Positions 2,421 through 20,921 are shown, numbered from the stretch's first letter. The stretch: DNA of 64,000 nt from Escherichia coli (GCF_041886205.1 NZ_CP169029.1), one strand, 5' to 3'. Numbers and translations: made by a program. The notes: generated by a model not told the origin, from the sequence alone.

Positions 2421-2430
2421 GCATCTTTCC

Positions 2431-3519
2431 TCACGGCAGGCGGTGGCGGGCTTGATAATAAGCCTGCCAGTGAGCTTCTTTATGTGTGGCGACTCGCTGT
2501 TCGAAGTAACGGCGCAGACGAGCGCGATCTTCTTCGTTATCTTTGACGATGGTTCCGGCAATACAGTCCACCAGATCGGCTGGCTCACCTGCGCGATTCG
2601 CTAAAAACCAGGCGCGGACGCCCACAGCGTGGGCCACGTTCACGGCTTCAGCGGTGGACATAATCGCTGTTAGTGTATCCATTGACGTTTTCTTTTCGCC
2701 GTTGGCACGCAGATCGCGGAAGGTGCGGACCAGTAACTCCAGTACCGCGTCAGGCACTTTATGCGGAATACCGCTATGGGCCAGCAAACGCGCCGAAGCA
2801 CTGGCGACCAGTTCCAGCTCCTGAGCGAAATCCATAATCGGAAAGACAGTTTCAAAATCGAAGCGACGCTTTAGCGCAGCACTCATCTCATTGACGCCGC
2901 GATCGCGCGTATTGGCAGTGGCAATAATATTAAAGCCTTCCCGCGCATAGAGTTGACTGGCTTCACCAGTGAGTTCCGGCACCGTCATCACCCTGTCAGA
3001 AAGCATACCTAACAGACAGTCTTGCACTTCCAGCGGTGTACGCGTTATCTCTTCAAAACGGACGATTTTGCCGTCGCGCATTCCCTGGTAAAGCGGGGCA
3101 GGGACCAGCGCTTCCGTTGATGGACCATGATTGATAAGCAGAGCGTAGTTCCAGCCGTACTTGATTTGATCTTCAGTGGTAAATGCGCCGCCCTGGATGG
3201 TTAACCCGGCATCGCCGCTAATAGCGGTTGCCAGTAATTCAGACAGGAGAGATTTTGCGGTGCCCGGTTCCCCCACCAACATCAAACCGCGCCCGGTGGC
3301 AAGAGTGACTAACATACGTTCGACAGCAGAGGGACTAATCACGACTTTACGGCTAATATTTTGCGCGCTATCGCCAAGGATAAAAGCACGTGCCGCAGGC
3401 AAACTTAACTGCCAACCGGGCGGGCAAGGTGCGTTATCATTTTGTTTTAATTTTGCCAGTTCATCGGCGTATAACACAGCGGCAGGCGGACGCTGCAGAT
3501 GATTATTCTGCGGTGACAT
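2431..3519 (-). CDS. yehL: MoxR-family AAA+ ATPase
   Basis: Walker A motif LVGEPGTAKS and a Walker B-like FEEITRT segment are visible. Start taken at MSPQNNHLQRPP (ATG 3519), giving about 362 aa. Confidence 0.85.
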   Translation of the reverse strand: MSPQNNHLQRPPAAVLYADELAKLKQNDNAPCPPGWQLSLPAARAFILGDSAQNISRKVVISPSAVERMLVTLATGRGLMLVGEPGTAKSLLSELLATAISGDAGLTIQGGAFTTEDQIKYGWNYALLINHGPSTEALVPAPLYQGMRDGKIVRFEEITRTPLEVQDCLLGMLSDRVMTVPELTGEASQLYAREGFNIIATANTRDRGVNEMSAALKRRFDFETVFPIMDFAQELELVASASARLLAHSGIPHKVPDAVLELLVRTFRDLRANGEKKTSMDTLTAIMSTAEAVNVAHAVGVRAWFLANRAGEPADLVDCIAGTIVKDNEEDRARLRRYFEQRVATHKEAHWQAYYQARHRLP

Positions 3520-3629: not shown

Positions 3630-3662
3630 TAAAAAAACCTGCTGGTGAGGCAGGTTCTTTTA
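3630..3662 (-). terminator. Rho-independent terminator downstream of yehK
   Basis: Minus-strand hairpin cctgcctcaccagcagg followed by a run of seven T. Confidence 0.6.
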
Positions 3663-3825
3663 TTTACTATTTTCAGGCCTAACACCACAGCCTGTGCAAC
3701 ATCGTGTTCCAACGAACGAATTATAACCACGGCTGGACCCCGTTGCAATTAAGATAATGAGATTTATAATCCAGACCGTTGGGACGTTGCGCCGGATCGG
3801 ACCAATTTGAATTATTTAGAGTATA

Positions 3826-4202: not shown

Positions 4203-7200
4203 TTAATGGAAAATGACGTCGGGTGCGCTTAACGCCTCACTCAAATCAAACACATCAAGTGCGGCAAAAGTGACGGATTTATTGTCACGGTACACCCGAA
4301 GAGAACGGAAGCTCATCAGCGCTTTGCTATCAGCACTGTAGTAGTTAAAACCGGGTGAAAACTTAAGGACCAGCCGGTACTCACCTAAGTCATAGACAAA
4401 TGCGTCCTCATAGCCTGACTCCCAGCCTTTGTATCGCATTCCCATAAGCTGCCCAACGGTAGCGGATTTACCTTCCCAGCGAGTCAGGCTGTTACTGGTT
4501 GACTCGTCAGGTGTGAGCAGCACCGTGCGGCGCGACAACTGGCGAAAAGGCGGCATAATTTCGTAATCGGCAAAAAGCTGTGCAAATTCACTGCGCATTT
4601 CTGCTGTCATTTCTAACGGGTGGGCAATGCCAATCAGAGCGTCCGCAGGCAGGTCAATGGGCTCATCTTGTGCATTGCAGAATTCCCCCTCTGCGGCCAC
4701 ACGAAAGGTGTTGAGTAAACGACGTGGTTCATTTGCCGGATAAACCCCCCATATTAATCGCTGGGTAACCAGGCGGGTAAAGGGATGATTAACAAAAAGA
4801 GAATGAAAATCTGCCAGCGACCAGCGTCGGGTGGTGCGTAGGGCAGTTTCAAGACGCGGGAGCAGGTTTTTGCTCACCTGAGTGGCATCTTTTTTTAGCC
4901 CTTTTAGTCGGGCCAGTGCCTCGGGCGCTTTCAGTTGATCGTCATCGGCGCGCAACCGGGGAACACTTTTCTGGCGAACGTTTTGTTGATCGTAGATAAC
5001 CGGGTTGAGGTTTTCATCGAAGCGAACGGTAAACTGCCGGGGACCAAAATCAAAAATCAACGCCTGCGGATCATCAAGACCCAGTGTTGGGACTAATCTG
5101 TCCGCTAACTCTTCCTGGCTTAGCCCGCGATTTTCTGCGACCACCTGAAGAAATTCCGCTGCGTTTTCACGTAATGAAGAGGATTTCGCCCGTTGTGATA
5201 CATGATGCAGCTGTATCAGCGCCATATCATTATTCATCAGGGTGAGTATATTCAGACCACTGACAGCACGGGCAGATTTGCCTTCTTGTGGCCAAGCGAG
5301 GATCTGTGTTGTTAGATCCCGTGCCGTGCTTTCGTCACCAAAGAGACTTAACGCCAGAAATGCCCAGTTGTCTTTTGCGGGGGCACCAGCTTGTTGCCAT
5401 GCGGTGAAGAGATCCCAGGCAAAAGCTGCCAGCGTTTGCGGCTGGCAGAACGTTTTCAGTTGTTCCAGCCCGCTATAAAAACGTCCCCCTTGGGTAAAGC
5501 GCAGCATTTCGCCAATAATTTCCAGAGCGTCATCGGTAACAGGTTGATTATTAGTGATAAGGCGCGGCCTGGACCACATTTGCGGATGCCAGAAATCAGG
5601 GGCTTTTGGAATGCGTGCCGGGTAAATCTCTATTGGACTCTGTTTAAGTAATTGTTCCAGGGCAGGCCATACATCAGCGCGATCCCAGCGGTTTGCCACG
5701 GTTTGTAGTAATACGCCATGTCCCTGTTCGTAAAGTAAACGCAGGGCAAGTAATGCAGCTTCGCTATTATCGCTGGATTTAGTGAAGACAAGAGGGATAA
5801 GTGCAGTAGCCGTATGTTCCGGCCATTGTAAAATCCACTGGCGAGCCAGATCACGCTGCGCCGCGAAACGTCGCCAGACGCGGGCAACAGGCAGCGCCAG
5901 TTCTGTTGCGCCGAAATGAATCAGCAGCGGAAATATCTCTTGTGGATGTCGGGCAAAGGCGGTGTTTAATCCAGGCAAAGCATCGGTAGCCAGCACACTT
6001 AACAGATATTCCACCCCAGTGTAATGAAAATCAGCATCGACAATTTGTTGCCAGCACGATACCGCCATTTCGCGCGGCATCTGCGCGATAAGGTACAGAT
6101 TCCAAATCCCCCAACGCTTTTCATTACCATAGTAAAATTCGTGCTGAAAAGTTCGCCACCCTTCCATCAACGCAATGCAATCTTGTGCCAGTAATGCTTT
6201 GGTGGCTTCTTCACGATACTGTTTAGATTTGGCCTGATGCGCGTGATAAGTACGCAATAGTCCTATTGATGTGTATTCTTGCAGTTGCTGAGCATCAAAG
6301 GCATCCAACTGTCCATTAAGAAGATGCTTATTAAATTCCAGGCTATGAACGTCAAAACCTAATTCCCGCAAGAAGGTATCCGCCCCTCTCTTAGCAATAC
6401 GTTCGTCAAAAGACATGGCGCTAAAATGGTCAATTGCAGTTTGCTGTTCCGGCGTCCAGTGTTTATTCGGCGACCTGTACGTTTGCGGTGCAAGCGTAAG
6501 ATCAGGCAGCGAAAAGTGAGGTATGGAAGTCTTTTTCTTCCTCCCACGCCATGGTGGTGAAACGAGGATTTCAGGCATTTGGCTGTTATCGGTACTATCA
6601 ATAACCGGTTTGGGCGGTGCCAATAAATAACTATTCAGTACTGCCCGGGCTTGAGTACTTAACCACTGCATCACCTCTTCTGCCAGTTGTGGCTGCGATG
6701 CCATCAGCGTTTGTAACAGCGTACGCCAGTATTCATCTCGAGCTTTTTGCTGGGCAGGCAGCTTTTTGTCTTCGATGATTGGATAACCAGGGCGGGCTGG
6801 TGGTTCTTTTAACGCCAACAGTTCTGCCAGTGCCGCGAGCGTCGCGTGGGGGAAGTTTTTACTGTATTTAGCCACACGTTGCAGGCTGGGTTTGTTTTTA
6901 TCAGCCACCAGTAGCAAGGTGCGGATGACCTGCGGATGGTTAATTTGTACCAACAGACTGCCGCAATCTTCTTTATGGGCATACATCGCGAGGCGCGGAA
7001 TGGCTGCCAGTCCTTGTTCGCGCAAAAGGGCGGCGCAGGCCGCGTAGCCGAAGTGGTTTTCATGCGACATGTAGCTGGCTTCGCGATCGCTAAATATATC
7101 CTGACTCCAGTAGTGATCGAGTTTCCTCACCGCTGTGGGGTCATTAGCAACAACTTTTAGCCACTCCTTAGAATGATAATGAGTCCGTGGGCATTCAAGG

Positions 7201-7850
7201 CCTATCAACTCATTGGCGATTTCTGGTTTTTCCGGGAGGATCAGCGCAATAAAAGGGCGGCGAACTTTGGTTATTCCTGGCAGTGCGGCAATGAGTTTGT
7301 CGGCGCAACGCTGCCAGCAGCTTTCCTCTGCCAGAGAGAGATGCTTACGCAGTCGGAGATCGAATTCGTTATAGGTTTCTGATCGATAACCATAGCCATA
7401 GTCCTCGTTCTGATACTGCAATGTCACTACCAGAGGATCACTCTCATAACACCGCGCAATAAACTGGCGTGCAATCACCACCTCAGTCGCATATTCCAGT
7501 CCCTCTTGTTGGACGATTTCGTCGAGCAACTGTTGGCTGTCATTTTGCGCGATACAGGCTAGTGCCGCCATTGTGCGGGCCGGGACTGAGGGTTTGTGTT
7601 CGCCGATCAAGTTGATGGCCTGCGTAATGGCGGACTGCCACTCCAGTGAAAAATTTTCATAACGCCAGACAATGTTTTTTTTCTTCTCAGCTTTTTGTAG
7701 CAATTCATCACCCAGTGTCTGAATGATGCTTTCAGTGATAACAGGCACCGGTTCGCCCGGCCATTTGCGATGACTGAGTGGTGTTTTGCCTTTTTTATAT
7801 TTCAGTTCCAGTTGGGCGTTATCCGCCAGCCACGGTAATTCCTTGTCCAT
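4203..7850 (-). CDS. yehI: YehI, giant DUF4132-family protein (1215 aa), paralog of MolR without the N-terminal WGR region
   Basis: ORF starts MDKELPWLADNAQ, which aligns to MolR at about residue 100 (LLPWLADGAQ). The C-terminal two-thirds is colinear with both molR copies. Confidence 0.9.
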   Translation of the reverse strand: MDKELPWLADNAQLELKYKKGKTPLSHRKWPGEPVPVITESIIQTLGDELLQKAEKKKNIVWRYENFSLEWQSAITQAINLIGEHKPSVPARTMAALACIAQNDSQQLLDEIVQQEGLEYATEVVIARQFIARCYESDPLVVTLQYQNEDYGYGYRSETYNEFDLRLRKHLSLAEESCWQRCADKLIAALPGITKVRRPFIALILPEKPEIANELIGLECPRTHYHSKEWLKVVANDPTAVRKLDHYWSQDIFSDREASYMSHENHFGYAACAALLREQGLAAIPRLAMYAHKEDCGSLLVQINHPQVIRTLLLVADKNKPSLQRVAKYSKNFPHATLAALAELLALKEPPARPGYPIIEDKKLPAQQKARDEYWRTLLQTLMASQPQLAEEVMQWLSTQARAVLNSYLLAPPKPVIDSTDNSQMPEILVSPPWRGRKKKTSIPHFSLPDLTLAPQTYRSPNKHWTPEQQTAIDHFSAMSFDERIAKRGADTFLRELGFDVHSLEFNKHLLNGQLDAFDAQQLQEYTSIGLLRTYHAHQAKSKQYREEATKALLAQDCIALMEGWRTFQHEFYYGNEKRWGIWNLYLIAQMPREMAVSCWQQIVDADFHYTGVEYLLSVLATDALPGLNTAFARHPQEIFPLLIHFGATELALPVARVWRRFAAQRDLARQWILQWPEHTATALIPLVFTKSSDNSEAALLALRLLYEQGHGVLLQTVANRWDRADVWPALEQLLKQSPIEIYPARIPKAPDFWHPQMWSRPRLITNNQPVTDDALEIIGEMLRFTQGGRFYSGLEQLKTFCQPQTLAAFAWDLFTAWQQAGAPAKDNWAFLALSLFGDESTARDLTTQILAWPQEGKSARAVSGLNILTLMNNDMALIQLHHVSQRAKSSSLRENAAEFLQVVAENRGLSQEELADRLVPTLGLDDPQALIFDFGPRQFTVRFDENLNPVIYDQQNVRQKSVPRLRADDDQLKAPEALARLKGLKKDATQVSKNLLPRLETALRTTRRWSLADFHSLFVNHPFTRLVTQRLIWGVYPANEPRRLLNTFRVAAEGEFCNAQDEPIDLPADALIGIAHPLEMTAEMRSEFAQLFADYEIMPPFRQLSRRTVLLTPDESTSNSLTRWEGKSATVGQLMGMRYKGWESGYEDAFVYDLGEYRLVLKFSPGFNYYSADSKALMSFRSLRVYRDNKSVTFAALDVFDLSEALSAPDVIFH

Positions 7851-7859
7851 GCTCTTTCC

Positions 7860-10800
7860 TTATTCAAACAGGGCTTCAATATCGTTAATTAGCTCGCTGG
7901 CGGTGATGGCATCGAGTACGGAGAACTGCGCTTCCTGTGTTGAATTACTCCCCCAGCCATAGCTTTCCGCTTTGCCTTCCCATAACCACAGCTTGCTTAA
8001 GAGCTGCTCAGCGCTAAGTTCGGCTGGTGACATACCCACCGCAAAACCTTCGTCGATTTCCATGATTAACGACCAGCGACCCAAAGGTTTGATCATCCAT
8101 CCGATCCAGCCTCCATCCTGTGGTTCGCCCTTTATCCAGCCTTTATTCGCCAGCCCCATGACCCGACCACTCGGGCATTTTCTGCCTGCCCAGCGGGTCA
8201 GTTCACTGGCATTGCGCTCGGCTTCTGTCAGGGCGTAGCTGTTACGGTCGAGCTGGCGGAACGGTGGTAGCAGTTCGTAGTCGGCAAAAAGCTGACCAAA
8301 GGCGGCAGCATCCGTTGGTGATATTTCCAGAACGTGAGGAGTGCCGATAGAGATATCGCCTTCCGGCAGGGTGAAAAGATCATCGTCAGCGGTGCTGTAG
8401 CTGTTATCTTCTGCTACGCGAAAGCAAGCCAGTAGCTGGTTTTCGGCGCTATAAACGCCCCAAATCAGACGGCGGGTTAAGTGACGAACCAGCGGATGCT
8501 CAACCAGGAAGAGCTGGAAGTTTTCCAGCGACCAGCGGCGGCGCAGGCACATGGCGGATTCCAGCCTTGCTACCTGCTGGGCGGCGACGGTACGCGCATC
8601 TTTTTTCAGCAGTTTGTAGCGGTTAACAGCATCGTTCGCCTGTGATTCATCATCGCTTTTGTTTGGTTTGGGCAGGTCTTTCAGACGGCTGCCGGAAGCG
8701 TCACGCACAAACGGTTTTAAGGTTTCATCAAAGCTGACGGTGAACTGGCGTGGGCCGAAATCCAGCAGCAACGAACCGTTATCATCCAGACCGAGATCTG
8801 GTGCTAACCGATCTTCAAGCTCCGCCACCGTGAGTTCGCGGCTCTCGGCAATATCGGCAATTTTCTCTTTTGCCCGCTCCTGTAAAGCTTTGAATTTCAG
8901 TTTCTGAGCAATGCCGTTAAGCTGCATCAGAGCAATATCACTACCGATAGCGGCGAGGATATCAAGCCCGACGGTGGCGCGTTTATGCTGGGATTCGCCA
9001 GGCCAGGCGCGGATTAATGGCGTCAGTTTGCGGGCGGTGTCATCGTTACCGAGAACGCCTAACGCAGTGAACGCCCAACTCTCTTTCGACGGCGCGCCAG
9101 CGGTCTGCCAGGCGGTAAACAGATCCCAGGCAAATTCAGCCAGTGAGTCGGCGGTACAGGCGTCTTTCACCTGTAATATTCCCGGATACAGAACCTCTTC
9201 CTGAGGGAAGCGGAGCATTTCACCGAGGTGGAGGAGGGCTCTATCTGGCAGTGATTGGGCGTTTGCTTTTAATACCGGGCGCGTCCAGAGCGATGGTTGA
9301 TAAAAGGCCGGAAGAGTGGGGATTTTTGTCGGGTGATTATCTAAGGGATCGAGCGCAAGCAGAGCGTTCACCGCATCGGTTACTTCCGGCTGGTTATAAC
9401 GTCGGGCGATTTCTTGCAGTAATGGCTGATGACCGTTTTCGGTAAGCATACGCAAGGCAGCGCGGGCGTTATCCTGTGCTTCACCGGCTTTGCCGAGCGC
9501 CGCAGGCAGCAGGCCGGTAAGGGCATGTTCCGGGTATTTCAACAGCCAGCTACGGGCGTTTTCGCGTAGCGTTTTGAGTTTGTTGAAGGCACGGGCAATC
9601 AGTGGCGCTAATTCGATAGCCGCAAAATATTGTGCTACAGGCAGCGCTTCTTGCGGATAGCGAGATGCTGAGTGGATAAAACCTGTTAAACCAGCAAGTC
9701 GAAGATGCAACATTACTTGTGTTGCACCTGTATGTGGTTCTTTACTAAGGATGTTCCACATCTCGATAGCTTTATTAATGGGTAAAACATGGAGTGAAGA
9801 AAGATTCCATTCGCCCTGATAAGGGGAGTTATAGGACTTAAAAGCATCAATCAGCGCTGAATAATCTTCACGCTGCAAGGCATCCAGTGCTATTTCTGGA
9901 ACATCAATATAGCCTCTATGTTTGTTCCAATCCCAGCGGTTGAATCCCAGGGAGGTCAGAAAAGCTTTTTCTCCCTCAGCTTGCTGATGAGGTTGCCAGT
10001 TATGCTGCACTTGCAGTGTTTTGCTTTTTGTTTCATTTATTGTACAGAAGGATTCTAGGGATAATGGTGCTAAATCCAGCACCGAAATCGTCGATTTTTT
10101 CTTTTTAGCCAGCCAGGGCGGTGAGACTAATACGGCAGGCAGCATATCAGCGTTCGCATAAACTGAAGGTTGTGTCAGTTGTTGCTGGCATGACTTAAGA
10201 ACGGTAACTGCCGGGGCAGATAGCCAGGAGATTACCCGTTCTGCTAATGTTGGTTGTGAGATAAGCATTGTCATTAGCATCATGCGCCAGCGCTTTTCAT
10301 CTTTTTTTGCCAGAAGTTCTGCTAATGCCGCCAGCGCTGCATGTGGAAAGCGAACGAAAGCCTTTGTCATGCGATCGTGGCAACGCTTTCCCTGCTCGCT
10401 TGCATGGATAAGTAGTGTAAGTGCCTGCGGGTGGTTGATATGCATCAACACTTCACCACATGTGTCACCAGCAGCGTAAGGAGCAAAACGGGCCAGCGCA
10501 GCGACACCTTGCTCCTTGAGTATCGTTGCGCACCAGATTTTACCTCCGTAATAATCATCAAATACCTGCCCAGGCTGTCCTGGATAGTATTTTCCCAGTT
10601 CTGCCAATACCTGCTCGTCAGCGGCCGTCAGTTTTAGCCATTCCAGCGCATATAACCCTTTTTGTCCGCAAAGATGTCTGGCAATCTCATGAGCTATTTC
10701 TGGTTTTTCCGGCAACAATAGTGCAACCAGCGGCTGGTGCCAGGTGGGCATGTTTCCGAGAGCGGCAATCAGTTTGTCGGCGCAGCGCTGCCATACATCG

Positions 10801-11618
10801 TCATTTGCAAGTGAGAGATGCTTACGCAGGCGCATTTCAACCGAAGCGAAGCGTAACAGATAGCCAGGCTGCCTGTTATCCGGGGTAACCGTAATGAGAT
10901 GGGCATCATAATCCCAGTCGAAGCGGATGAATTGCAATGCAATGACAACCTCAGTGGCATATTCCAGACCACCTTCCTGGACAATTTGATCCATTAACTC
11001 TTCATGATCGTTACGATTGAAGCCTTGTTCCAGCGCAACCAGTACCGCCAGTACCATCGGAGGTAGCGTGGTGCTAATTGGCGAGTCGATAAGGCCTACT
11101 GCTTGTGTAATTGCCTGCTGCCAGTCGAGTGAACAGGTACTGTAATCGAAGGTGAGCACCTTTTTAAAACGCCGGTGAGTATTCGCGGCAACGGTGCGTA
11201 GCAGGGTTAATTCATCCTCCTGCTGCACCGGATCGCCAGGCCAGCGTCGATGACTGAGTGTGGTTGGCGCAATCTCTGTCGGTAACATGATTTGGGCACC
11301 GTCTGCCAGCCAGGGGAGGAGGTCACCAGCAAATGCTGGTTTGTCTTGTGGCAAAGGGGTAATTTCAGGGCATTCAATAACCTGGCCGGGTGCAAATGTC
11401 GCTGTCATCACGGATACTTCTTCTACGTAGCCCTTTTTTGTTTTCTCCGCAATCAGCTTCAGCTCCGCTTTTTCCGCCGCCGCAGCATCTGCAAAGCTTT
11501 TTACCTGACTTTGCCCGTTACTGCCGACTTTACCCCAGTTAATATGCAGCTCGTTTCCCTGCTGCTCCACCGCCCAGAATTTATGTGATTTTTCGTCCTG
11601 ATAAATATAGGTTTTCAT
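7860..11618 (-). CDS. molR: MolR-like giant protein (1252 aa), intact, with N-terminal WGR-like domain plus DUF4132-type body
   Basis: N-terminus MKTYIYQDEKSHKFWAVEQQGNELHINWGKVG carries a WGR-like motif. There is a 9-nt gap to yehI. To my recollection molR is a fragmented pseudogene in K-12 but is intact here. Confidence 0.85.
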   Translation of the reverse strand: MKTYIYQDEKSHKFWAVEQQGNELHINWGKVGSNGQSQVKSFADAAAAEKAELKLIAEKTKKGYVEEVSVMTATFAPGQVIECPEITPLPQDKPAFAGDLLPWLADGAQIMLPTEIAPTTLSHRRWPGDPVQQEDELTLLRTVAANTHRRFKKVLTFDYSTCSLDWQQAITQAVGLIDSPISTTLPPMVLAVLVALEQGFNRNDHEELMDQIVQEGGLEYATEVVIALQFIRFDWDYDAHLITVTPDNRQPGYLLRFASVEMRLRKHLSLANDDVWQRCADKLIAALGNMPTWHQPLVALLLPEKPEIAHEIARHLCGQKGLYALEWLKLTAADEQVLAELGKYYPGQPGQVFDDYYGGKIWCATILKEQGVAALARFAPYAAGDTCGEVLMHINHPQALTLLIHASEQGKRCHDRMTKAFVRFPHAALAALAELLAKKDEKRWRMMLMTMLISQPTLAERVISWLSAPAVTVLKSCQQQLTQPSVYANADMLPAVLVSPPWLAKKKKSTISVLDLAPLSLESFCTINETKSKTLQVQHNWQPHQQAEGEKAFLTSLGFNRWDWNKHRGYIDVPEIALDALQREDYSALIDAFKSYNSPYQGEWNLSSLHVLPINKAIEMWNILSKEPHTGATQVMLHLRLAGLTGFIHSASRYPQEALPVAQYFAAIELAPLIARAFNKLKTLRENARSWLLKYPEHALTGLLPAALGKAGEAQDNARAALRMLTENGHQPLLQEIARRYNQPEVTDAVNALLALDPLDNHPTKIPTLPAFYQPSLWTRPVLKANAQSLPDRALLHLGEMLRFPQEEVLYPGILQVKDACTADSLAEFAWDLFTAWQTAGAPSKESWAFTALGVLGNDDTARKLTPLIRAWPGESQHKRATVGLDILAAIGSDIALMQLNGIAQKLKFKALQERAKEKIADIAESRELTVAELEDRLAPDLGLDDNGSLLLDFGPRQFTVSFDETLKPFVRDASGSRLKDLPKPNKSDDESQANDAVNRYKLLKKDARTVAAQQVARLESAMCLRRRWSLENFQLFLVEHPLVRHLTRRLIWGVYSAENQLLACFRVAEDNSYSTADDDLFTLPEGDISIGTPHVLEISPTDAAAFGQLFADYELLPPFRQLDRNSYALTEAERNASELTRWAGRKCPSGRVMGLANKGWIKGEPQDGGWIGWMIKPLGRWSLIMEIDEGFAVGMSPAELSAEQLLSKLWLWEGKAESYGWGSNSTQEAQFSVLDAITASELINDIEALFE

Positions 11619-11630
11619 TGCTAAATCCTT

Positions 11631-14600
11631 TTAATCAAACAGTGATTCAATATCGTTAATCAGCTCGCTGGCGGTGATGTCGTCGAGCACGGAGAAGGGA
11701 TAAACCGATTTGCGCGGCGTCAGTTTGCACAACTGAATGTGCTCAATTTTTTGGCTATCGCTGATTTCGGTGACGGGCAATCCAACGCAGAAGCCTGGTG
11801 TCACACTCAGTTCGACGTAGCCATCATCCACAGATTTATAAAATGAGTAATAGCCGCCACCATCCAGCACATCGCCCCGTTGCCAGCCTTTATTCATCAG
11901 CCCGGCGACGCGCCCACTCGCTGCCTGGCGACCAGCCCAGCGCTGCAAATCGCTGCTGCTTTTTTCTGTCTCAGAGAGCTGAGACCAGGGGCGATCAAGT
12001 TGACTGAATGGTGGCAATAGTTCGTAGTCAGAGAACAGTTGTGCAAATTCAGCAGCCTGCGGGGCCGGGATTTCCAGTACATGCGGGATACCGATACTGC
12101 CCTGCGCAAGGGTTAACGGGTTATCCTGACCGTCGCTAAAACTGCCATCCTCCGCCACGCGGAAACAGGAAATAAGCTGATTATCAGCGTCATAAATGCC
12201 CCACATCAGACGTTGGGTGATATGACGAACCAGGGGATGCTCAACCAGAAACAGGCGGAACTGTTCTGCAGTCCAGCGGCGACGCTGACACATGGCGGCT
12301 TCCAGACGCGAAATCTGTTGTGCAGCTACCGTGCGGACATCTTTTTTCAACAACTTGTAGCGATTTACCGCTTCCTCAGCCAGCGTTTCATCATCGCTTT
12401 TGTTCGGTTTGGGCAGATCTTTCAGACGGTTGCCGGAAGCTTCGCGCACAAACGGTTTTAAGGATTCATCAAAGCTGACGGTGAACAGGCGTGGGCCGAA
12501 ATCCAGCAGTAGTGAGCCGTTATCATCCAGACCGAGATCGGGGGCTAACCGGTCTTCCATCTCTGCGACGGTGAGCTGGCGGCTTTCGGCAATCTGGGCG
12601 ATTTTAGTTCTAGCCTGATCCTGCAAGGCTTTAAATTTTAGCTTTTGCGCAATACCGTTAAGTTGCATCAGGGCGATATCGCTGCCGATAGCAGCAAGAA
12701 TATCCAGCCCGACAGTGGCGCGTTTATGCTGAGATTCCCCCGGCCATGCGCGGATGAGCGGGGTGAGTTTGCGGGCGGTGTCATCGTTACCCAGAATCCC
12801 CAGTGCGGTAAATGCCCAGTTATCTTTGGCTGACCCGCTTGCAATCTCCCAGCTCAAGAAGAGATCCCAGGCGAAATCGGCAAGAGACTGCGGGGTACAG
12901 GCCTCGATTACCTGTGTTATCCCCGGGTAAAGGGTGGCTTCGCGGGGAAAAGAGAGCATGGTGCACAGTTGCAGGATAGCTGAATCCGGAAGTGCCTTGC
13001 CGTTACTGCGCAGAAGCGGGCGGTGCCATACTTCAGGGGTACACCAGGCGGGGAGTTTAGCGATTTTCTGCGGAAAATTATCGAGGGGGTCGCTGTTAAG
13101 AACATCTAACAAACCCGTAAGCACTTCTGCCTGATTATAGCGGTGGGCAATTTCTTCCATTAACGGCTGATGCCCATGATGAGCCAGATAGCGAATTGCC
13201 GTAGCGGCGTCTTCACGCTCACTACCTGCTTTTCCCAGCACGGAAGGCAGCAGGCCCGTAATGGCATGTTCCGGATAGGTTAACAACCAACGTTCAGCAA
13301 CATCACGTACAGATTTAAGCTGACGAAAGGCGCGAGCCATTAAGGGGGCTACTTCGGTTGCGCCAAAACGTGCCGCTAAAGGAATGGCTTCCTGAGGTAC
13401 GACTAAGGCGCGACGCAGCAAGCCGGGCAATGTCGGAAGACCGTAATATTCCACTACTTCACATGCGTTAATCAGATGTAGGTGAGTCAGTGCGTTCCAT
13501 ATTTTCAGTGCTTTATTTTCTGATAACTGAAGCAATACCGACACATTGACAAGGATATGACTTGCCCACCGAGGTTTATCCCAGATCTTTAATAAAGCTT
13601 CGTAATTGTCCTGCTCGAAAAAATCAATGGCAGCCTGAGGTATACCCCAACCAAGCTCTTCGCAATGGAAGTTCAACAAATCCAGGATATCTTTCGCTGA
13701 TGGGGATGGCGCAGATGGCTCAGTCAGATTTTTTGTTGCGGGGATAGATTCAGGGGGGGAAGAGGTAATACCCGGAGAGTGAGGTTGATACCAGCAATCT
13801 TTTTCTTTTTTTCCAACCATGAAGGGGCGATCAATATACTGGGTAATTCATTCTTATGAGCAATTTTTTCGATGGACATAAGCTGAGGAAAATAACTAAA
13901 TAAAATTTGTTGCTGTTTTTCGTCAAGCCAGGGAAGCGTTTTATGTAAGGCTTGCGCATTACCCAAGATGATGCGCTGCAGTAAACGATAATAGTGAGAG
14001 TTATTTGTGTAATTTAAGGCTTTTGTTAATGCATAAAGTGCAGCTTCAGGATGTAAATTTGTTGCGTGTTCCACTTCACTGATACATTCTTCTTTTATTA
14101 ATATATTAATGGCGTCAGGATGATTAACTTGTGTAATTAGATTTTTAACTGAATAACTATCCTTTATCCATGGCTGAAGAAGTGGAAGAGCTTTTACCCC
14201 TCGTTCACGCAGTAATGTCGCAGTGCATTTTTCCGCCGTCTGCCAGTCGTTATAGCGCTTAAGTTGGTTAAGATTCATCAATTCATTGAGTGCCTGCGGA
14301 TCTGTGGCAACGATATCCAACCATTCCATTTCTGGGTAATTAGCACATTGCACTAAGTCAAAGACAATTTGATTAGCAATTTCAGGTTGTTCAGGCAAAA
14401 GAAAACCTATTAAAGGGCGTTTACGTGGAGACAGGGAAGGCAACGCTTGAGTAAGCTTTTTCATGCACCGTTGCCATGTTTTTTCATCAATACGCGAGAG
14501 ATGATTTCGCAAGTGAAAATCTACAGTGCTGAAGCCGAATTCAAAACGTTGTTCTGATATTGTGTTACTTAGAATAAGCGTTGGTACGCAATTTTTTGTA

Positions 14601-15370
14601 AAAAAATTGTATCCCATGCGAACATACAAAAGGCATTTATCTAAAGCTTCACAATTTCCCGGATCTTGATTTTGATCATCTGATATCTGAATTTGCTGTA
14701 ATAGCAAGACTAATTCGGTCGCGTATTCTACCCCATGCTGTTGCGCCAGATAATCAAAAAGATCATTAGCGCTATCGCTATCTTGCATAAGAAACTTGAC
14801 CAGCAAAAAGAATGCATTGGAGAAAATCGAACCGTCTATATTTTTCTGCTGAACGCGCATGATTGCTTCATCCCGGCCTCGTTGCCATTCCGGGCGGCAG
14901 TCACTCACATCAAAATGCTGTAATTGTGCAAGAAAATAGTATTCCTCATATTTGTTTTCCCATAAGAGTGACCATAACGAGATATCTTTAGCAAACGTCC
15001 TGACACTGTCGGCTGGGAATTTCCTACTGCTAAATACTCTCTTTGTTTCGAGAATGATTGGTTCAAGGTCCGCAATCCACGGTGGTGTGTCGACATCAGT
15101 AATAATTGGATGTTGTTCGCTATCATCAGCTGTGGTGGGAACAGTTATCAGCATGTTTATATCGTCAGTCGATTTTACATACCCCTTCTTCACCTTCTCC
15201 GCAATCAACTTCAGCTCCGCTTTTTCCGCCGTTGCAGCATCCGCAAAACTTTTTACCTGGCTTTGCCCTTGGGTGCCAACTTTTCCCCAACTGATATGCA
15301 ACTCGTTTCCCTGTTGCTCCACCGCCCAGAATTTATGTGATTTTTCGTCCTGATAGATAAAGCGTCTCAT
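11631..15370 (-). pseudogene. Second MolR paralog (WGR + DUF4132), split into 548-aa and 729-aa ORFs by a frameshift
   Basis: ORF 13724..15370 starts MRRFIYQDEKSHKFWAVEQQGNELHISWGKVG. ORF 11631..13820 continues colinear with molR. The two frames overlap at 13724..13820, which contains a G7 tract (13753..13759) and a T6 tract (13729..13734). Confidence 0.8.
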
Positions 15371-15469
15371 TCTGCATCCCTGTAATTTTATCCAGTTGAA
15401 TGCAGATGCTACCAGTATTTATGCGGGTTAGAGAGAGACAAAATCGCAAGAAAACAACTTTAGGAATTT

Positions 15470-15502
15470 ATAAAGAAAAGGCGCTGTCGATGCAGCGCCT
15501 TG
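15470..15502 (-). terminator. Rho-independent terminator of metG
   Basis: Minus-strand hairpin aaggcgctg/cagcgcctt followed by a T-rich run, just past the metG stop. Confidence 0.6.
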
Positions 15503-15510
15503 AAGGGGGA

Positions 15511-17544
15511 TTATTTCACCTGATGACCCGGTTTAGCACCGGCATCCGGGCTTAGCAGGAAGATATCTTTCCCGCCAGGACCAGCAGCCATTACCATGCC
15601 TTCGGAGATACCAAAGCGCATTTTACGCGGCGCCAGGTTAGCCACCATAATGGTGTGACGACCAATCAGAGCCTGCGGATCCGGGTAAGCAGAACGAATG
15701 CCGGAGAAAACATTACGTTTTTCACCGCCGAGATCCAGTGTCAGTCGCAGCAGTTTGTCAGAACCTTCAACAAACTCTGCATTTTCAATCAGCGCCACGC
15801 GCAGGTCAACTTTAGCGAAGTCGTCAAAGGTGATGGTTTCCTGAATCGGATCGTCTGCCAGCGGGCCAGTAACTGTCGCGGCAGCTGCTTTCACTTCTTC
15901 TTTAGAGGCTTCCACCAGTGCTTCAACCTGCTTCATATCGATGCGGTTATACAGCGCCTTGAACGGATTCACTTTGTGGCCCAGCAGCGGTTGCTGGATA
16001 CCATCCCAGGTCAGTTCCGTATTGAGGAATGCTTCTGCACGCTCGGTCAGTTTCGGCAGTACCGGCTTCAGGTAAGTCATCAGCACGCGGAACAGGTTTA
16101 TGCCCATTGAGCAAATTGCCTGCAGGTCGGCATCGCGGCCTTCCTGTTTCGCCACAACCCACGGAGCCTGTTCATCGACATAGCGGTTAGCCAGATCAGC
16201 CAGCGCCATGATTTCGCGCACGGCTTTACCAAATTCGCGGCTTTCCCACGCTTCACCAATCACTTCAGCGGCATCAGTGAAGGTTTTGTACAACTGCGGG
16301 TCAGCCAGTTCGCTTGCCAGCACACCGTCAAAACGCTTGTTGATAAAGCCCGCATTACGAGAGGCCAGGTTAACCACTTTGTTAACGATATCGGCATTCA
16401 CGCGCTGAACGAAATCTTCCAGGTTGAGATCGATATCATCAATGCGCGAAGAGAGTTTCGCAGTGTAGTAGTAACGCAGGCTGTCAGCGTCAAAATGATT
16501 CAGCCAGGTGCTGGCTTTAATAAAGGTACCGCGAGACTTAGACATCTTCGCGCCGTTCACCGTCACATAGCCATGAACAAACAGGTTGGTCGGCTTGCGG
16601 AAGTTGCTGCCTTCCAGCATTGCTGGCCAGAACAGACTGTGGAAGTAAACAATATCTTTACCGATGAAGTGGTACAGCTCGGCGGTGGAGTCTTTCTTCC
16701 AGTATTCATCGAAGCTTACGCTGTCGCCGCGCTTGTCGCACAGATTCTTGAAAGAACCCATATAGCCAATCGGCGCATCTAGCCAGACGTAGAAATATTT
16801 ACCCGGCGCGTTCGGAATTTCAAAACCGAAGTACGGCGCGTCGCGGGAGATATCCCACTGTTGCAGGCCGGATTCAAACCACTCCTGCATTTTATTTGCC
16901 ACCTGCTCCTGCAACGCACCGCTGCGGGTCCATGCCTGCAACATTTCGCTGAAAGAGGGCAGATCAAAGAAGAAGTGTTCAGAATCACGCATTACCGGCG
17001 TAGCGCCAGAAACCACCGATTTCGGCTCGATCAATTCAGTCGGGCTGTAGGTCGCGCCGCAAACTTCGCAGTTATCGCCGTATTGATCCGGGGATTTACA
17101 TTTCGGGCAGGTGCCTTTCACAAAACGGTCCGGCAGGAACATGCCTTTTTCCGGATCGTACAGCTGAGAGATGGTGCGGTTTTTAATAAAACCGTTTTCT
17201 TTCAAGCGAGTATAGATAAGCTCAGACAACTGGCGGTTCTCTTCGCTGTGCGTCGAGTGATAGTTGTCATAGCTGATGTTAAAGCCTGCGAAATCAGTCT
17301 GATGCTCCTGACTCATTTCGCCAATCATCTGCTCCGGGGTGATACCAAGCTGCTGAGCTTTCAGCATGATTGGCGTACCGTGGGCATCGTCGGCGCAGAT
17401 GAAGTTGACCTCGTGGCCGCGCATTCGCTGGTAACGGACCCAGACATCAGCCTGGATGTGCTCCAGCATATGGCCGAGGTGGATTGAGCCGTTAGCGTAC
17501 GGCAGTGCGCACGTCACCAGAATTTTCTTCGCGACTTGAGTCAT
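15511..17544 (-). CDS. metG: Methionyl-tRNA synthetase
   Basis: Start [26 protein letters not shown] carries the class I HIGH motif, and KMSKS is present; about 677 aa. Confidence 0.97.
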
Positions 17545-17675
17545 AGTAGGCATTACTTCTTAATAGTGAAAAGGGGTTAGATAGTACCAAATGGGAAAAT
17601 GTTAAGTAAGTACTTCTCTATATTCTTCAGGTAAACTATCAGCTGATGGTTTATCTATACAAAAAAGGAGTCGGG

Positions 17676-18785
17676 ATGAACGAACAATCCCAGGCCAAAT
17701 CACCAGAAGCCTTGCGCGCAATGGTCGCCGGGACACTGGCCAATTTTCAGCACCCAACCCTGAAGCATAACCTCACCACGCTGAAAGCGTTGCACCATGT
17801 CGCCTGGATGGACGACACGTTGCATGTGGAACTGGTTATGCCATTCGTCTGGCATAGCGCGTTTGAAGAGTTAAAAGAGCAATGTAGCGCCGAACTGCTG
17901 CGTATCACCGGGGCGAAAGCTATCGACTGGAAACTGTCGCACAATATCGCCACCTTAAAACGCGTGAAGAATCAGCCGGGTATTAATGGCGTGAAGAACA
18001 TCATTGCGGTCAGTTCCGGTAAAGGCGGCGTGGGTAAATCCTCCACGGCGGTAAACCTGGCGCTGGCACTGGCGGCGGAAGGGGCGAAAGTCGGCATTCT
18101 GGACGCCGATATCTACGGCCCATCAATTCCCACCATGCTGGGCGCAGAAAATCAGCGTCCAACTTCGCCGGACGGTACCCATATGGCACCGATTATGTCT
18201 CATGGCCTGGCAACCAATTCAATTGGTTATCTGGTCACTGACGACAATGCGATGGTGTGGCGTGGACCGATGGCGAGCAAGGCGTTAATGCAGATGTTGC
18301 AGGAAACCTTGTGGCCGGATCTGGACTATCTGGTACTCGACATGCCGCCAGGAACCGGTGACATTCAGCTGACGCTGGCGCAGAACATTCCGGTGACTGG
18401 TGCGGTAGTGGTCACCACCCCGCAGGACATCGCGCTGATCGATGCGAAAAAAGGCATTGTGATGTTCGAGAAAGTCGAAGTTCCGGTGCTCGGTATTGTC
18501 GAGAACATGAGTGTGCATATTTGCAGTAACTGTGGTCACCATGAACCGATTTTCGGTACCGGTGGTGCAGAGAAACTGGCTGAAAAATACCACACACAGC
18601 TGCTGGGGCAGATGCCGTTACACATCTCCTTACGTGAGGATCTCGATAAAGGCACGCCAACGGTTATCAGCCGTCCGGAGAGCGAATTTACCGCTATCTA
18701 TCGCCAGCTGGCTGACCGCGTTGCAGCTCAGCTCTACTGGCAGGGTGAAGTCATTCCCGGCGAGATTTCCTTCCGCGCGGTCTAA
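17676..18785 (+). CDS. apbC: Fe-S cluster carrier ATPase Mrp/ApbC
   Basis: Start MNEQSQAKSPEAL; P-loop SSGKGGVGKSS; CxxC motif (CSNCGHH). Confidence 0.95.
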   Translation: MNEQSQAKSPEALRAMVAGTLANFQHPTLKHNLTTLKALHHVAWMDDTLHVELVMPFVWHSAFEELKEQCSAELLRITGAKAIDWKLSHNIATLKRVKNQPGINGVKNIIAVSSGKGGVGKSSTAVNLALALAAEGAKVGILDADIYGPSIPTMLGAENQRPTSPDGTHMAPIMSHGLATNSIGYLVTDDNAMVWRGPMASKALMQMLQETLWPDLDYLVLDMPPGTGDIQLTLAQNIPVTGAVVVTTPQDIALIDAKKGIVMFEKVEVPVLGIVENMSVHICSNCGHHEPIFGTGGAEKLAEKYHTQLLGQMPLHISLREDLDKGTPTVISRPESEFTAIYRQLADRVAAQLYWQGEVIPGEISFRAV

Positions 18786-18814
18786 CGCCTATTAACCATT
18801 CTGGTTATTTTTCA

Positions 18815-18856
18815 TACACCGCAGAGATGTTACATTGATGCGGTGTATTTGTTTTT
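18815..18856 (+). terminator. Rho-independent terminator after apbC
   Basis: Hairpin acaccgca...tgcggtgt followed by tttgttttt. Confidence 0.55.
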
Positions 18857-19047
18857 GCCGCATTAATGAACACTTATTTAATACTGCGAATATTCTGCGG
18901 ACCTTCGTCCGAAACTCTACAAAGTCGATTGATCGTACAGGCAATGCTTCATTATCATCCTTCGTGGCTGTGTAGTGGATGTACAGCTATAGTTTGTTAT
19001 GCACTCATTCTATCCAGGCATAACCTTTACTACAGGGATAACGTTCA

Positions 19048-19329
19048 ATGAATAAGTATTGGCTGTCAGGAATTATTTTTCTTGCCTATGGATTGGCTTC
19101 TCCCGCATTCTCTTCACAGACTGCCACATTATCGATTAATGGCAGGATCAGTCCCCTAACATGCAGTATGACTATGGTTAATAGTCAACCTCAACAGCAT
19201 TGTGGTCAGTTAACGTATAATGTCGATACCCGTCATCAGGTTTCTTCGCCCGTCAAAGGTGTAAAGACAGAAGTGGTTGTTGCAGGTAGTGATAGCAAAC
19301 GTCGAATCGTGTTAAATCGATACGATTAA
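19048..19329 (+). CDS. yehE: YehE, small secreted protein (93 aa)
   Basis: ORF with a signal-peptide-like N-terminus, positioned before yehD. Confidence 0.8.
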   Translation: MNKYWLSGIIFLAYGLASPAFSSQTATLSINGRISPLTCSMTMVNSQPQQHCGQLTYNVDTRHQVSSPVKGVKTEVVVAGSDSKRRIVLNRYD

Positions 19330-19360
19330 TTTGGCAACCTGATTTTAATTGCATTTAGAA

Positions 19361-19399
19361 AGCCGAAATCATTTATATAAATGATTTCGGCTTTTTTTA
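19361..19399 (+). terminator. Rho-independent terminator after yehE
   Basis: Palindrome agccgaaatcatttatataaatgatttcggc followed by ttttttt. Confidence 0.7.
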
Positions 19400-19622
19400 T
19401 TGATATCAATAATACCATTTACATAAATCTACATTAATTAATAGATGCGATAAATATTTAATACTCTTAAGTATTTGTTGTATTTATATTGCATTGGTTA
19501 ATTTGTTTTAAATCAATAAAACAATATGTTTACATTGCGGCAACTTTTTTGATGTGAGAAATTTGTTTCCAAGAGATACAGACTCTTAACAACCAAAAAT
19601 AAATTTTATTAAGGAACATATT

Positions 19623-20165
19623 ATGAAACGTTCAATTATTGCTGCCGCTGTCTTTTCTTCTTTTTTTATGAGCGCTGGAGTATTTGCTGCAGACGTTGAT
19701 ACCGGAACATTAACCATTAAAGGAAATATTGCAGAATCTCCGTGTAAATTCGAAGCGGGTGGTGATTCAGTAAGTATTAATATGCCGACTGTACCAACCA
19801 CTGTCTTTGAAGGTAAAGCTAAATATTCTACCTATGATGATGCAGTCGGTGTAACCAGCAGCATGTTAAAAATTAGCTGCCCGAAAGAAGTTGCTGGTGT
19901 AAAACTCTCGTTGATTACCAACGATAAAATAACTGGTAACGATAAGGCGATAGCCAGTAGCAACGATACCGTGGGGTACTATCTCTATTTAGGTGATAAC
20001 AGCGATATCCTGGATATTTCTGCACCTTTTAACATTGAGAGTTATAAAACAGCGGAAGGTCAATATGCTATTCCGTTTAAAGCAAAATACCTGAAACTGA
20101 CAGATAACTCAGTGCAATCAGGTGATGTGTTATCTTCTCTGGTTATGCGTGTGGCGCAGGATTAA
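19623..20165 (+). CDS. yehD: Fimbrial major subunit (chaperone-usher pathway)
   Basis: 180-aa ORF with signal peptide and fimbrin-like composition; first gene of the yehDCBA order. Confidence 0.9.
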   Translation: MKRSIIAAAVFSSFFMSAGVFAADVDTGTLTIKGNIAESPCKFEAGGDSVSINMPTVPTTVFEGKAKYSTYDDAVGVTSSMLKISCPKEVAGVKLSLITNDKITGNDKAIASSNDTVGYYLYLGDNSDILDISAPFNIESYKTAEGQYAIPFKAKYLKLTDNSVQSGDVLSSLVMRVAQD

Positions 20166-20246
20166 TAAATAAAAATTGCAAGTTTCTCCAGGTAATAAAC
20201 ATGGCCGCTATCCCCATGGCGGCTTTTTAATTTAAGAGGCATTAAG

Positions 20247-20921
20247 ATGAAAGGATTATTATCTTTACTCATTTTTTCTATGGTCCTTCCTGCGCATGCC
20301 GGAATTGTTATCTACGGGACGCGCATTATTTACCCGGCAGAAAATAAAGAAGTGATGGTGCAGTTGATGAACCAGGGAAACCGTTCTTCGCTGCTGCAGG
20401 CGTGGATTGATGATGGCGATACGTCGTTACCACCAGAAAAAATTCAGGTTCCTTTCATGTTAACGCCACCAGTGGCAAAAATAGGGGCAAATTCCGGGCA
20501 GCAAGTAAAAATCAAAATTATGCCGAATAAACTGCCCACTAATAAAGAAAGCATTTTTTATCTGAATGTTCTGGATATTCCACCAAATAGTCCAGAACAA
20601 GAAGGTAAGAATGCACTGAAGTTTGCGATGCAAAACAAAATCAAATTGTTTTACCGGCCGGCGGGTATTGCTCCGGTAAATAAAGCGACCTTTAAAAAGT
20701 TACTGGTAAATCGCAGTGGCAATGGATTGGTGATAAAAAATGACTCAGCTAATTGGGTGACGATTTCGGATGTCAAAGCTAATAATGTCAAAGTCAATTA
20801 TGAAACTATTATGATTGCCCCCTTAGAAAGTCAGAGTGTTAATGTCAGAAGTAATAATGCAAATAACTGGTATCTGACCATTATCGATGACCACGGTAAC
20901 TATATTAGTGACAAAATTTAA
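20247..20921 (+). CDS. yehC: Periplasmic fimbrial chaperone (PapD-like)
   Basis: Signal peptide followed by a chaperone-like N-terminal region (GIVIYGTRIIYPAENKEVMVQLMNQG). Confidence 0.9.
   Translation: MKGLLSLLIFSMVLPAHAGIVIYGTRIIYPAENKEVMVQLMNQGNRSSLLQAWIDDGDTSLPPEKIQVPFMLTPPVAKIGANSGQQVKIKIMPNKLPTNKESIFYLNVLDIPPNSPEQEGKNALKFAMQNKIKLFYRPAGIAPVNKATFKKLLVNRSGNGLVIKNDSANWVTISDVKANNVKVNYETIMIAPLESQSVNVRSNNANNWYLTIIDDHGNYISDKI

Follow-up and report, generated by a model that had tools for sequence, protein, structure and literature searches.

Tandem MolR-family paralogs between metG and yehK in Escherichia coli form a mosaic of conserved and divergent segments, probably shaped by selection and recombination

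Introduction

The gene molR of Escherichia coli K-12 (a pseudogene, formerly yehG/yehH) lies with yehI between metG and yehK, and its name, 'molybdate regulator', rests on old genetics. Here, we describe the corresponding gene array in a 64,000-nucleotide (nt) stretch of an E. coli genome (GCF_041886205.1, NZ_CP169029.1; the whole stretch is hereafter called the window). In the window, two tandem genes encoding WGR and DUF4132 domains, the metG-adjacent copy B and the downstream copy A, are followed by copy C, a yehI-like DUF4132 paralog without WGR (Table 1). Locus and domain composition are the same as in K-12, and the position of the array between metG and yehK-yehLMPQ agrees with the annotation of both NZ_AP027790 and K-12 MC4100. 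Copy A matches molR at 95% in its 3' half, and copy C matches yehI at ~95% except in one block. However, K-12 carries a single broken WGR copy with another N-terminal half, whereas the window carries two, one of which is of the rare type B. Nothing found in our analysis supports a role of molR in molybdate regulation. The family is uncharacterised but already annotated, with A, B, and C all recorded as DUF4132 proteins in RefSeq ('WGR and DUF4132 domain-containing protein' or 'DUF4132 domain-containing protein').

Several described systems resemble this locus in part. Rhs and contact-dependent inhibition (CDI)-type loci of enterobacteria, in which a conserved core is joined to variable, often AT-rich tips and orphan cassettes move by homologous recombination, are alike in process only, i.e., large genes, a conserved recombination segment, divergent lower-GC variable parts, and strain-variable content, but the variable part of MolR is the N-terminal half plus a middle block rather than the C-terminal tip, and whole genes instead of orphan tips are gained or lost. 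The MolR array has neither RHS/YD repeats nor a toxin domain (Pfam), and no small open reading frame (ORF) that could be an immunity gene occurs in its 9-12-nt gaps. Membership in the Rhs/polymorphic toxin class was ruled out by the Pfam content (WGR and DUF4132 only), these gaps, and the HEAT-like solenoid fold. With the concerted evolution of tufA/tufB or the rRNA operons, the array shares paralogs that are closer to each other than orthologs are (B and E, the latter a further WGR copy of some strains) and a crossover hybrid. Unlike in the tuf-type case, homogenisation is limited to short ends and some 3' tracts while the gene bodies are saturated with substitutions, resulting in a mosaic and not in uniform copies. 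Finally, the adjacent yehL (AAA+) and yehP (vWA) genes, which are highly conserved across distant bacteria, resemble MoxR-type AAA+/vWA pairs such as RavA-ViaA, NorQ-NorD, and CbbQ-CbbO; we know of no WGR/DUF4132 solenoid partners or SWIM/DUF5682 components in those systems. Shuffling by a diversity-generating retroelement or an invertase was dropped as a candidate, given that no reverse transcriptase, recombinase, or high-identity repeats were found. The enzymes were absent from ORFs of at least 100 amino acids (aa) over positions 6500-17000 (three DUF4132-family genes and metG) and from the annotation farther away (yeh genes, apbC, and fimbrial genes), a search that did not include a scan for inverted repeats. 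The direct repeats of the region are diverged paralog blocks only (61-89% identity).

We consider it likely, with good confidence, that A and B are ancient MolR-family tandem paralogs whose mosaic structure results from module-specific purifying selection combined with recombination at the gene ends and in short tracts, with a putative binding or specificity surface in the variable N-terminal half and a putative docking function of the C-terminal half. The clearest new results are the crossover between paralogs D and B in the upstream copy of the window and the one-to-four-copy polymorphism across E. coli.

Results

Similarity profile of copies A and B

The two copies were compared by global alignment in 100-nt windows and by blastn. 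Nucleotide identity is 85% over gene nt 1-198 (11421-11619 vs 15173-15371), falls to 20-50%, near chance and with many gaps, over nt ~200-1900, and then rises to ~60% (nt ~1950-2500) and 76-93% (nt ~2550-3000; 8650-9070 vs 12400-12810). Beyond nt ~3000 it drops to ~37% until the last 66 nt (89%). Blastn joined gene nt 2071-3374 (~1300 nt) into one block with 72% identity, peaking at 93%. Exact matches between A and B reach at most 41 nt.

A preliminary description of the window had presented A and B as mosaics with near-identical ends, very high similarity at the 5' end and across the C-terminal third, and strongly divergent interiors with low GC content in the upstream copy. The mosaic is real and the class of process proposed for it was right, so that this description is partly supported, but it was overstated. 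The interiors are indeed strongly divergent in protein sequence (16-46% amino-acid identity; N-terminal halves essentially unalignable), divergence is not uniform in sliding windows, and interior GC lies below that of the flanks. In contrast, identities of 85-89% do not make the ends near-identical. The 5' similarity exists at a lower level than was claimed, and that of the C-terminal third corresponds to the ~1300-nt block, in which identities of 80-93% are confined to positions around 8650-9070. Plus-strand ORFs had been reported to encode the same peptides in both copies; such shared peptides do occur in slightly shorter form (GLGRSFRRLPE at 8665/12406, RNQLQLRFFRR at 11448/15200, and QLVSLLLHRPEF at 11547/15299).

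Hybrid origin of copy B

Paralog D is a third paralog, known from strains with three and four WGR copies. Gene 5' ends together with upstream DNA were aligned, and informative sites were counted using copies D and B of the three-copy strain 6EVA as references. Copy B of the window shows no mismatch to the metG-adjacent D of 6EVA between positions -139 and 135 of the coding sequence (CDS), with 16/16 informative sites D-like up to nt 129, whereas it is identical to 6EVA B from nt 138, with 20/20 informative sites B-like over nt 138-200. The remaining 3.5 kb differ from 6EVA B by two single-nucleotide polymorphisms and one indel, which is the frameshift. The upstream copy is a D::B hybrid gene, and the clean switch from D to B within the WGR-coding segment implies that the two-copy array of the window is a deletion derivative of a longer array. 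It would have arisen from D-B-A (or D-B-E-A) when a crossover in the WGR-coding segment removed the body of D, leaving D::B.

The frameshift of copy B lies in the sole homopolymer of at least 7 G/C (or at least 8 A/T) in 7860-15370. The almost identical genome NZ_AP027790 has G8 at this site and an intact 3741-nt B gene (WP_001252237.1), and all other complete genomes with the entire segment gave a match that is longer by one base, as expected for G8. The 1-nt frameshift is either a private pseudogenising mutation or a homopolymer sequencing error.

Array variation and concerted evolution

We surveyed 5426 complete E. coli genomes, counting interior types at a coverage of at least 80%. The K-12 type was found in 4004 genomes and the D type in 1632, followed by type A (22 genomes and ~740 partial matches at 90-95%), type B (8 and 1 partial), and type E (3 and 2 partial). 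Both copies as in the window occur in five genomes (best at 100.0% rounded identity). The B|A junction (last 66 nt of B, the spacer, and the first 200 nt of A; ~278 nt) is present at every internal boundary of such arrays, and when used as a 278-nt query it matched end to end in 1634 of the genomes surveyed (30%), which contain at least two tandem copies. Among the arrays inspected, the number of WGR copies ranges from one to four per strain: metG-(single pseudogene)-yehI in K-12, metG-F(D type)-G(A type)-yehI in 042, metG-D-B-A-yehI in 6EVA and USMARC-49610, metG-D-B-E with E truncated by the insertion sequence (IS) IS1 in PT62, (IS)-B(truncated)-E-A-yehI in MB53, and metG-D-B-E-A(broken)-yehI, i.e., four WGR copies and yehI, in GF4-3. 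Variation in copy number between strains, with a single fragmented molR in K-12, had been anticipated in the preliminary description and is borne out by these arrays.

The 3' ends of the genes do not follow gene lineage. The last 66 nt group by array position: copies that precede another WGR gene (B, D, E, F, and XH990-up) are 97-100% alike and those that precede yehI (A, G, and K-12) are 95-98% alike, as opposed to 85-89% between the two classes. We calculated the proportions of synonymous (pS) and nonsynonymous (pN) differences with the Nei-Gojobori approach on codon alignments, values that are rough for small windows. The bodies of D, B, and A are pS-saturated, whereas the last 22 codons show a pS of only 0.07-0.13 (B/D, B/F, and D/E). 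The similarity of B and E extends farther. In the lineage of the window and MB53, the two copies have no differences across the last 1023 nt (the truncated B of MB53 equals window B over 1896 nt), and in GF4-3 they are 95-100% alike, whereas orthologs differ by 1-7%, with ~4% for either copy, over the same 3' region (window B vs GF4-3 B, MB53 E vs GF4-3 E). Because paralogs within a lineage are closer than orthologs between lineages, this pattern points to gene conversion between B and E. In summary, features of a recombining tandem array found at this locus are a hybrid gene with a discrete breakpoint, copy-number polymorphism, and a B/E pair closer than orthologs; for A and B, low pS is limited to a tract of ~140 nt. 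The ~270-nt boundary (last 66 nt, spacer, and WGR-coding 200 nt) would be the main substrate for unequal exchange.

Alleles of the same lineage are mosaics as well. Copy A matches K-12 molR at 95% from nt 1906 to the end and at 83% in the first 197 nt, with ~70% identity or unalignable sequence in between, and over its first 195 nt K-12 molR most resembles B and D, the metG-adjacent copies (90-92%). Compared to the 042 allele, A is 53-63% identical in the middle block (gene nt ~1350-1930) and at least 90% identical in the flanks. Alleles thus exchange the N-terminal half and the middle block apart from the C-terminal half, a possibility raised in the preliminary description as central segments swapping independently of the termini. 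A similar middle block was observed in copy C (~5921-6501), with 41-56% identity to yehI of K-12 and XH990 and mostly 90-99% in the flanks. Members of the A lineage were also identified in E. fergusonii, E. albertii, and E. ruysiae, and their identity of 82-89% overlaps with that seen among E. coli alleles (77-100%). These are deep allelic polymorphisms, possibly trans-species or introgressed; introgression among Escherichia lineages is plausible because pS among E. coli alleles is 0.13-0.38.

In 9/11 inspected arrays, the window included, one or more DUF4132 genes are frameshifted, truncated, or broken by an IS. The molR pseudogene of K-12 has a frameshift and an internal stop, yehI of strain 042 is frameshifted and its yehL has an internal stop, and arrays of other strains contain IS1, IS3, and IS4 insertions and internal deletions. 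The broken genes in nine arrays and the molR pseudogene would fit degenerating duplicates under relaxed selection, with the mosaic as a by-product without adaptive meaning. We regard this explanation as unlikely, given that the C-terminal half of intact copies has a pN/pS of 0.06/0.63, and of 0.02/0.16-0.35 between deep alleles, and that family and operon are kept out to Betaproteobacteria, with thousands of clusters.

AT-rich interior of copy B

The GC content of copy B is 0.34-0.43 across ~13850-15050, compared to 0.51 for the window, which bears out the AT-rich interior noted earlier for the upstream copy. Over nt 199-1900, B has a GC at third codon positions (GC3) of 0.37 compared to 0.46 for A, whereas both reach 0.54-0.56 in their 3' halves. 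The preliminary description had suggested that a central cassette was horizontally replaced, and a recent import of the B interior from a low-GC donor outside Escherichia would fit its composition (GC 0.41 and GC3 0.37 vs ~0.53 in the 3' half) as well as its rarity. The interior was found in 9/5426 complete E. coli genomes (8 and 1 partial), and a word-indexed search of 5.8 billion proteins returned one metagenomic match at 41% identity, a search which says little beyond rarity since B itself was not returned.

Such a replacement is nevertheless quite improbable. When one genome was scanned for each bacterial species, a B-type gene was identified at the same array position (B'-A'-yehI') in Escherichia sp. 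MOD1-EC7003. The N-terminal half of this gene is as AT-rich as that of B (GC 0.40, GC3 0.345) and has already diverged from it to 35-68% amino-acid identity, compared to 85-100% in the C-terminal half, which makes a recent import unlikely. Furthermore, GC content rises from 0.41-0.51 in the N-terminal half to 0.51-0.56 in the 3' half in all paralogs. No homolog was present in 50,697 phage records, and the 27 plasmid records with the locus (PLSDB), several of them chromosome-sized, give no sign of mobility; ORFs and annotation of the window revealed no mobile-element genes flanking B. Among the PLSDB entries, H139, H141, and H142 are 4.8-4.9 Mb in size and evidently misfiled chromosomes, and two 181-kb E. 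coli records (H137 and H138) contain a copy at 97%. The AT-rich interior of B looks like an old lineage trait, not a fresh foreign import.

Selection and conversion in the A/B pair

In the N-terminal interior, A and B differ by pS 0.80 and pN 0.51. The most conserved protein core of A (aa 861-935) contrasts with this interior in pN (0.06) and is likewise saturated at synonymous sites (pS 0.63; 0.55-0.75 in 30-codon windows), and its columns are nearly invariant across the family. Because its 50 identical residues lie on saturated synonymous sites, and because thousands of family members likewise conserve the C-terminal half, the similarity of the core is due to protein-level constraint, i.e., purifying selection on ancient paralogs and not conversion. 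Three other segments show reduced synonymous divergence. In the tract at aa ~940-985, pS is far below that of its flanks (Fisher p = 1e-6 for aa 936-1000) with low pN. Given that pS at the same sites is 0.66-0.69 in the A/D and B/D comparisons, these sites are not intrinsically constrained, and the tract is probably an old gene conversion between the A and B lineages. The WGR region (aa 1-66) has a pS of 0.47 (p = 0.009; ~0.7 elsewhere) and a pN of 0.08, and the last 22 codons a pS of 0.30 (p = 0.001) and a pN of 0.09. Judged from these substitution patterns, the tract, the WGR-coding 5' end, and the last 22 codons would carry traces of recombination or gene conversion. The proposal of gene conversion or shuffling between paralogs thus holds for the conserved ends (D::B hybrid, B/E identity, and grouping of the last 66 nt), and does not hold for most of the A/B similarity in the C-terminal third.

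The saturated core, the retention of the same C-terminal half across the family, and the status of WGR as a recognised Pfam domain could suggest that domain-level purifying selection on old paralogs produced the conserved ends and the conserved block without any recombination between copies. This explanation is very unlikely, since it does not account for the 36 informative sites without exception in the D-to-B switch of window B, the identity of B and E over 1023 nt while their orthologs differ, the low-pS tract that is specific to A/B among the A, B, and D comparisons, or the grouping of 3' ends by position.

Repeats formed by paralogs may mislead assembly, and the frameshift of B falls in a homopolymer. 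Even so, a second copy or chimeric end created by repeat mis-assembly is extremely improbable, because the two-copy structure is shared by five complete genomes, including at least two that differ in host and country of origin, and exact identity between the copies of at most 41 nt is too short to mislead an assembler; only the 1-nt indel of window B could be an assembly error.

Protein family

Pfam matches on A are WGR (PF05406; aa 7-67, E = 1e-17) and DUF4132 (PF13569; aa 976-1161, E = 1e-50), and nothing else. A sequence search of the PDB recovered the WGR domain only (2ra8, E = 9e-18; PARP3), and in NCBIfam both B and D have the same sub-threshold, WGR-like partial match at the N-terminus, while copy C lacks WGR. 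The AlphaFold2 model (predicted local distance difference test score of 89) predicts a helical solenoid followed by a C-terminal alpha/beta domain, and its structural neighbours are HEAT/ARM proteins only. The family comprises 6002 clusters at 50% identity (E <=1e-3), or 2656 at <=1e-30. Of the 6002 family representatives, 150 matches were listed, and most of these cover nothing but the C-terminal half of A, where the nearly invariant family columns are also concentrated, showing that a variable N-terminal and a conserved C-terminal half are a property of the whole family.

The betaproteobacterium Chitinibacter sp. GC72 has the same operon order (locus 8272-21951), with a WGR-DUF4132 gene, a WGR-less paralog, and homologs of YehL, YehM, and YehP; an extra ORF (19641-20681) lies between its yehM and yehP homologs. 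Identity to the E. coli proteins is 76% for YehL and 69% for YehP compared to 42% for MolR and ~31% for YehI, and the DUF4132 proteins are, accordingly, the fast-evolving components of the operon. No match to the defence models of PADLOC-DB v2 was found for A, B, C, D, or YehK/L/M/P, and a search of the literature on DUF4132/WGR genes, molR, and the yeh partners returned nothing on function. The metG/DUF4132/yeh region is noted merely as a transposon insertion site in a paper on E. coli sequence type 131 (ST131), and the paper on vWA-MoxR ternary conflict systems does not mention DUF4132 or yeh genes.

Locus layout

The positions of the array genes and of the segments discussed above are given in Table 1. 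The three tandem paralogs are separated by 12 nt (B/A) and 9 nt (A/C), and a promoter/terminator scan gave nothing notable within the array. Downstream of the array, the RefSeq order is yehK, yehL (ATP-binding), yehM (DUF5682), yehP (vWA), and yehQ (SWIM). In an Rfam search over the array, no RNA family was found at the gene junctions, and the sole match lies farther downstream: an OrzO-P type I antitoxin small RNA at 3631-3706 (- strand; 99.9 bits, gathering score 60) in the 306-nt gap between yehK and yehL, with no obvious 29-aa ZorO-like toxin ORF nearby. This match may be an orphan antitoxin remnant, because the zor-orz locus is placed between yehI and yehL in O157:H7 and is absent from MG1655 (Fozo et al. 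2010, PMC2887945). The flanking genes metG and yehL (2431-3519) are 97.0% and 96.1% identical in nucleotide sequence to K-12, and 99.4% and 99.9% identical to GF4-3, and elevated divergence or recombination may extend past the array into these genes.

Table 1 Features of the metG-yehI array and its boundaries in the window
Feature	Position	Strand	Remarks
Copy C, yehI-like DUF4132 paralog without WGR	4203-7850	-	1215 aa; third array member
Copy A, WGR and DUF4132	7860-11618	-	Intact, 1252 aa; yehI-adjacent
Last 66 nt of A	7860-7925	-	89% identity to last 66 nt of B (11631-11696)
DUF4132-coding segment of A (aa 976-1161)	8136-8693	-	Pfam
Low-pS tract of A (aa ~940-985), ~140 nt	8664-8801	-	12405-12542 in B; pS 0.13-0.22, flanks ~0.7
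Most conserved protein core of A (aa 861-935)	8814-9038	-	50 consecutive residues identical to B
WGR-coding segment of A (aa 7-67)	11418-11600	-	Pfam; B counterpart ~15170-15352
B/A spacer, 12 nt	11619-11630		Part of ~278-nt conserved junction
Copy B, WGR and DUF4132	11631-15370	-	Upstream, metG-adjacent; frameshift-split ORFs of 548 aa (13724-15370) and 729 aa (11631-13820)
AT-rich divergent N-terminal interior of B	13470-15172	-	Gene nt ~199-1900; GC 0.41, GC3 0.37
G7 homopolymer (C7 on coding strand), frameshift site	13753-13759		One base shorter than in other complete B-carrying genomes
Crossover interval of B	15234-15241	-	CDS nt 130-137; last D-like site nt 129, first B-like site nt 138
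D-derived part of B	15242-15510	-	CDS nt 1-129 and 140 nt upstream (metG-side intergenic DNA)
Terminator-like hairpin of metG	15478-15501		Promoter/terminator scan
metG	15511-17553	-	Upstream array boundary

Discussion

The process itself is a textbook one, in which tandem paralogs undergo unequal crossing-over and gene conversion. A and B stand first in the yeh cluster, and each combines an N-terminal WGR domain with a predicted long HEAT-like solenoid and, at the C-terminus, a DUF4132 alpha/beta domain. Two causes account for the mosaic. Strong purifying selection on WGR, the last solenoid repeats, and DUF4132 holds nucleotide identity at 70-83% despite saturated synonymous sites. Homologous recombination and gene conversion are concentrated where genes meet (the first ~200 nt as well as the last 66 nt with the spacer) and in short tracts within the genes. 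The boundary repeats would allow arrays to grow, shrink, and form hybrid genes, leading to one to four WGR copies per strain. A surface for binding or specificity may lie in the fast-evolving N-terminal solenoid and the middle block, and the invariant C-terminal half may dock onto the conserved YehL/YehP machinery.

Several points weigh against this interpretation. Neither the specificity surface nor the docking onto YehLMPQ has database or literature backing (no PADLOC, NCBIfam, or PDB match beyond WGR). The direction and order of events, i.e., D-B-E-A as the ancestral state with shorter arrays derived from it or the reverse, is inferred from a handful of genomes. The recombination signal between A and B is modest, with a short tract and few synonymous sites per window, and site-specific synonymous constraint in the WGR region is hard to set aside entirely. 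Lastly, the many pseudogene copies could mean decay rather than diversifying selection.

A more far-reaching and rather doubtful possibility is that the MolR/YehI array is the hypervariable sensor or specificity module of a conflict (anti-phage or anti-plasmid) machine composed of YehL (MoxR-like AAA+), YehM, YehP (vWA), and YehQ (SWIM). Hypervariability, presence/absence polymorphism, frequent inactivation, and H-NS silencing led us to this idea. WGR might then read a nucleic-acid signal while the fast-evolving solenoid surfaces bind to proteins of invaders. The repertoire would be diversified as copies are gained, lost, or fused via the conserved gene ends, and balancing selection would keep deep trans-species alleles.

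The yeh cluster is one of the larger E. coli gene blocks still without a function. Within it, the giant DUF4132 genes are the fast-evolving and copy-number-variable part, whereas their AAA+/vWA partners are highly conserved. The comparisons made here provide handles on this cluster, namely segments that are candidate specificity determinants, natural arrays of one to four copies, intact or broken, that can be compared, and strains suited to such work. Alleles called 'molR' are mosaics, so orthology, pseudogene calls, and typing schemes at this locus are unreliable.

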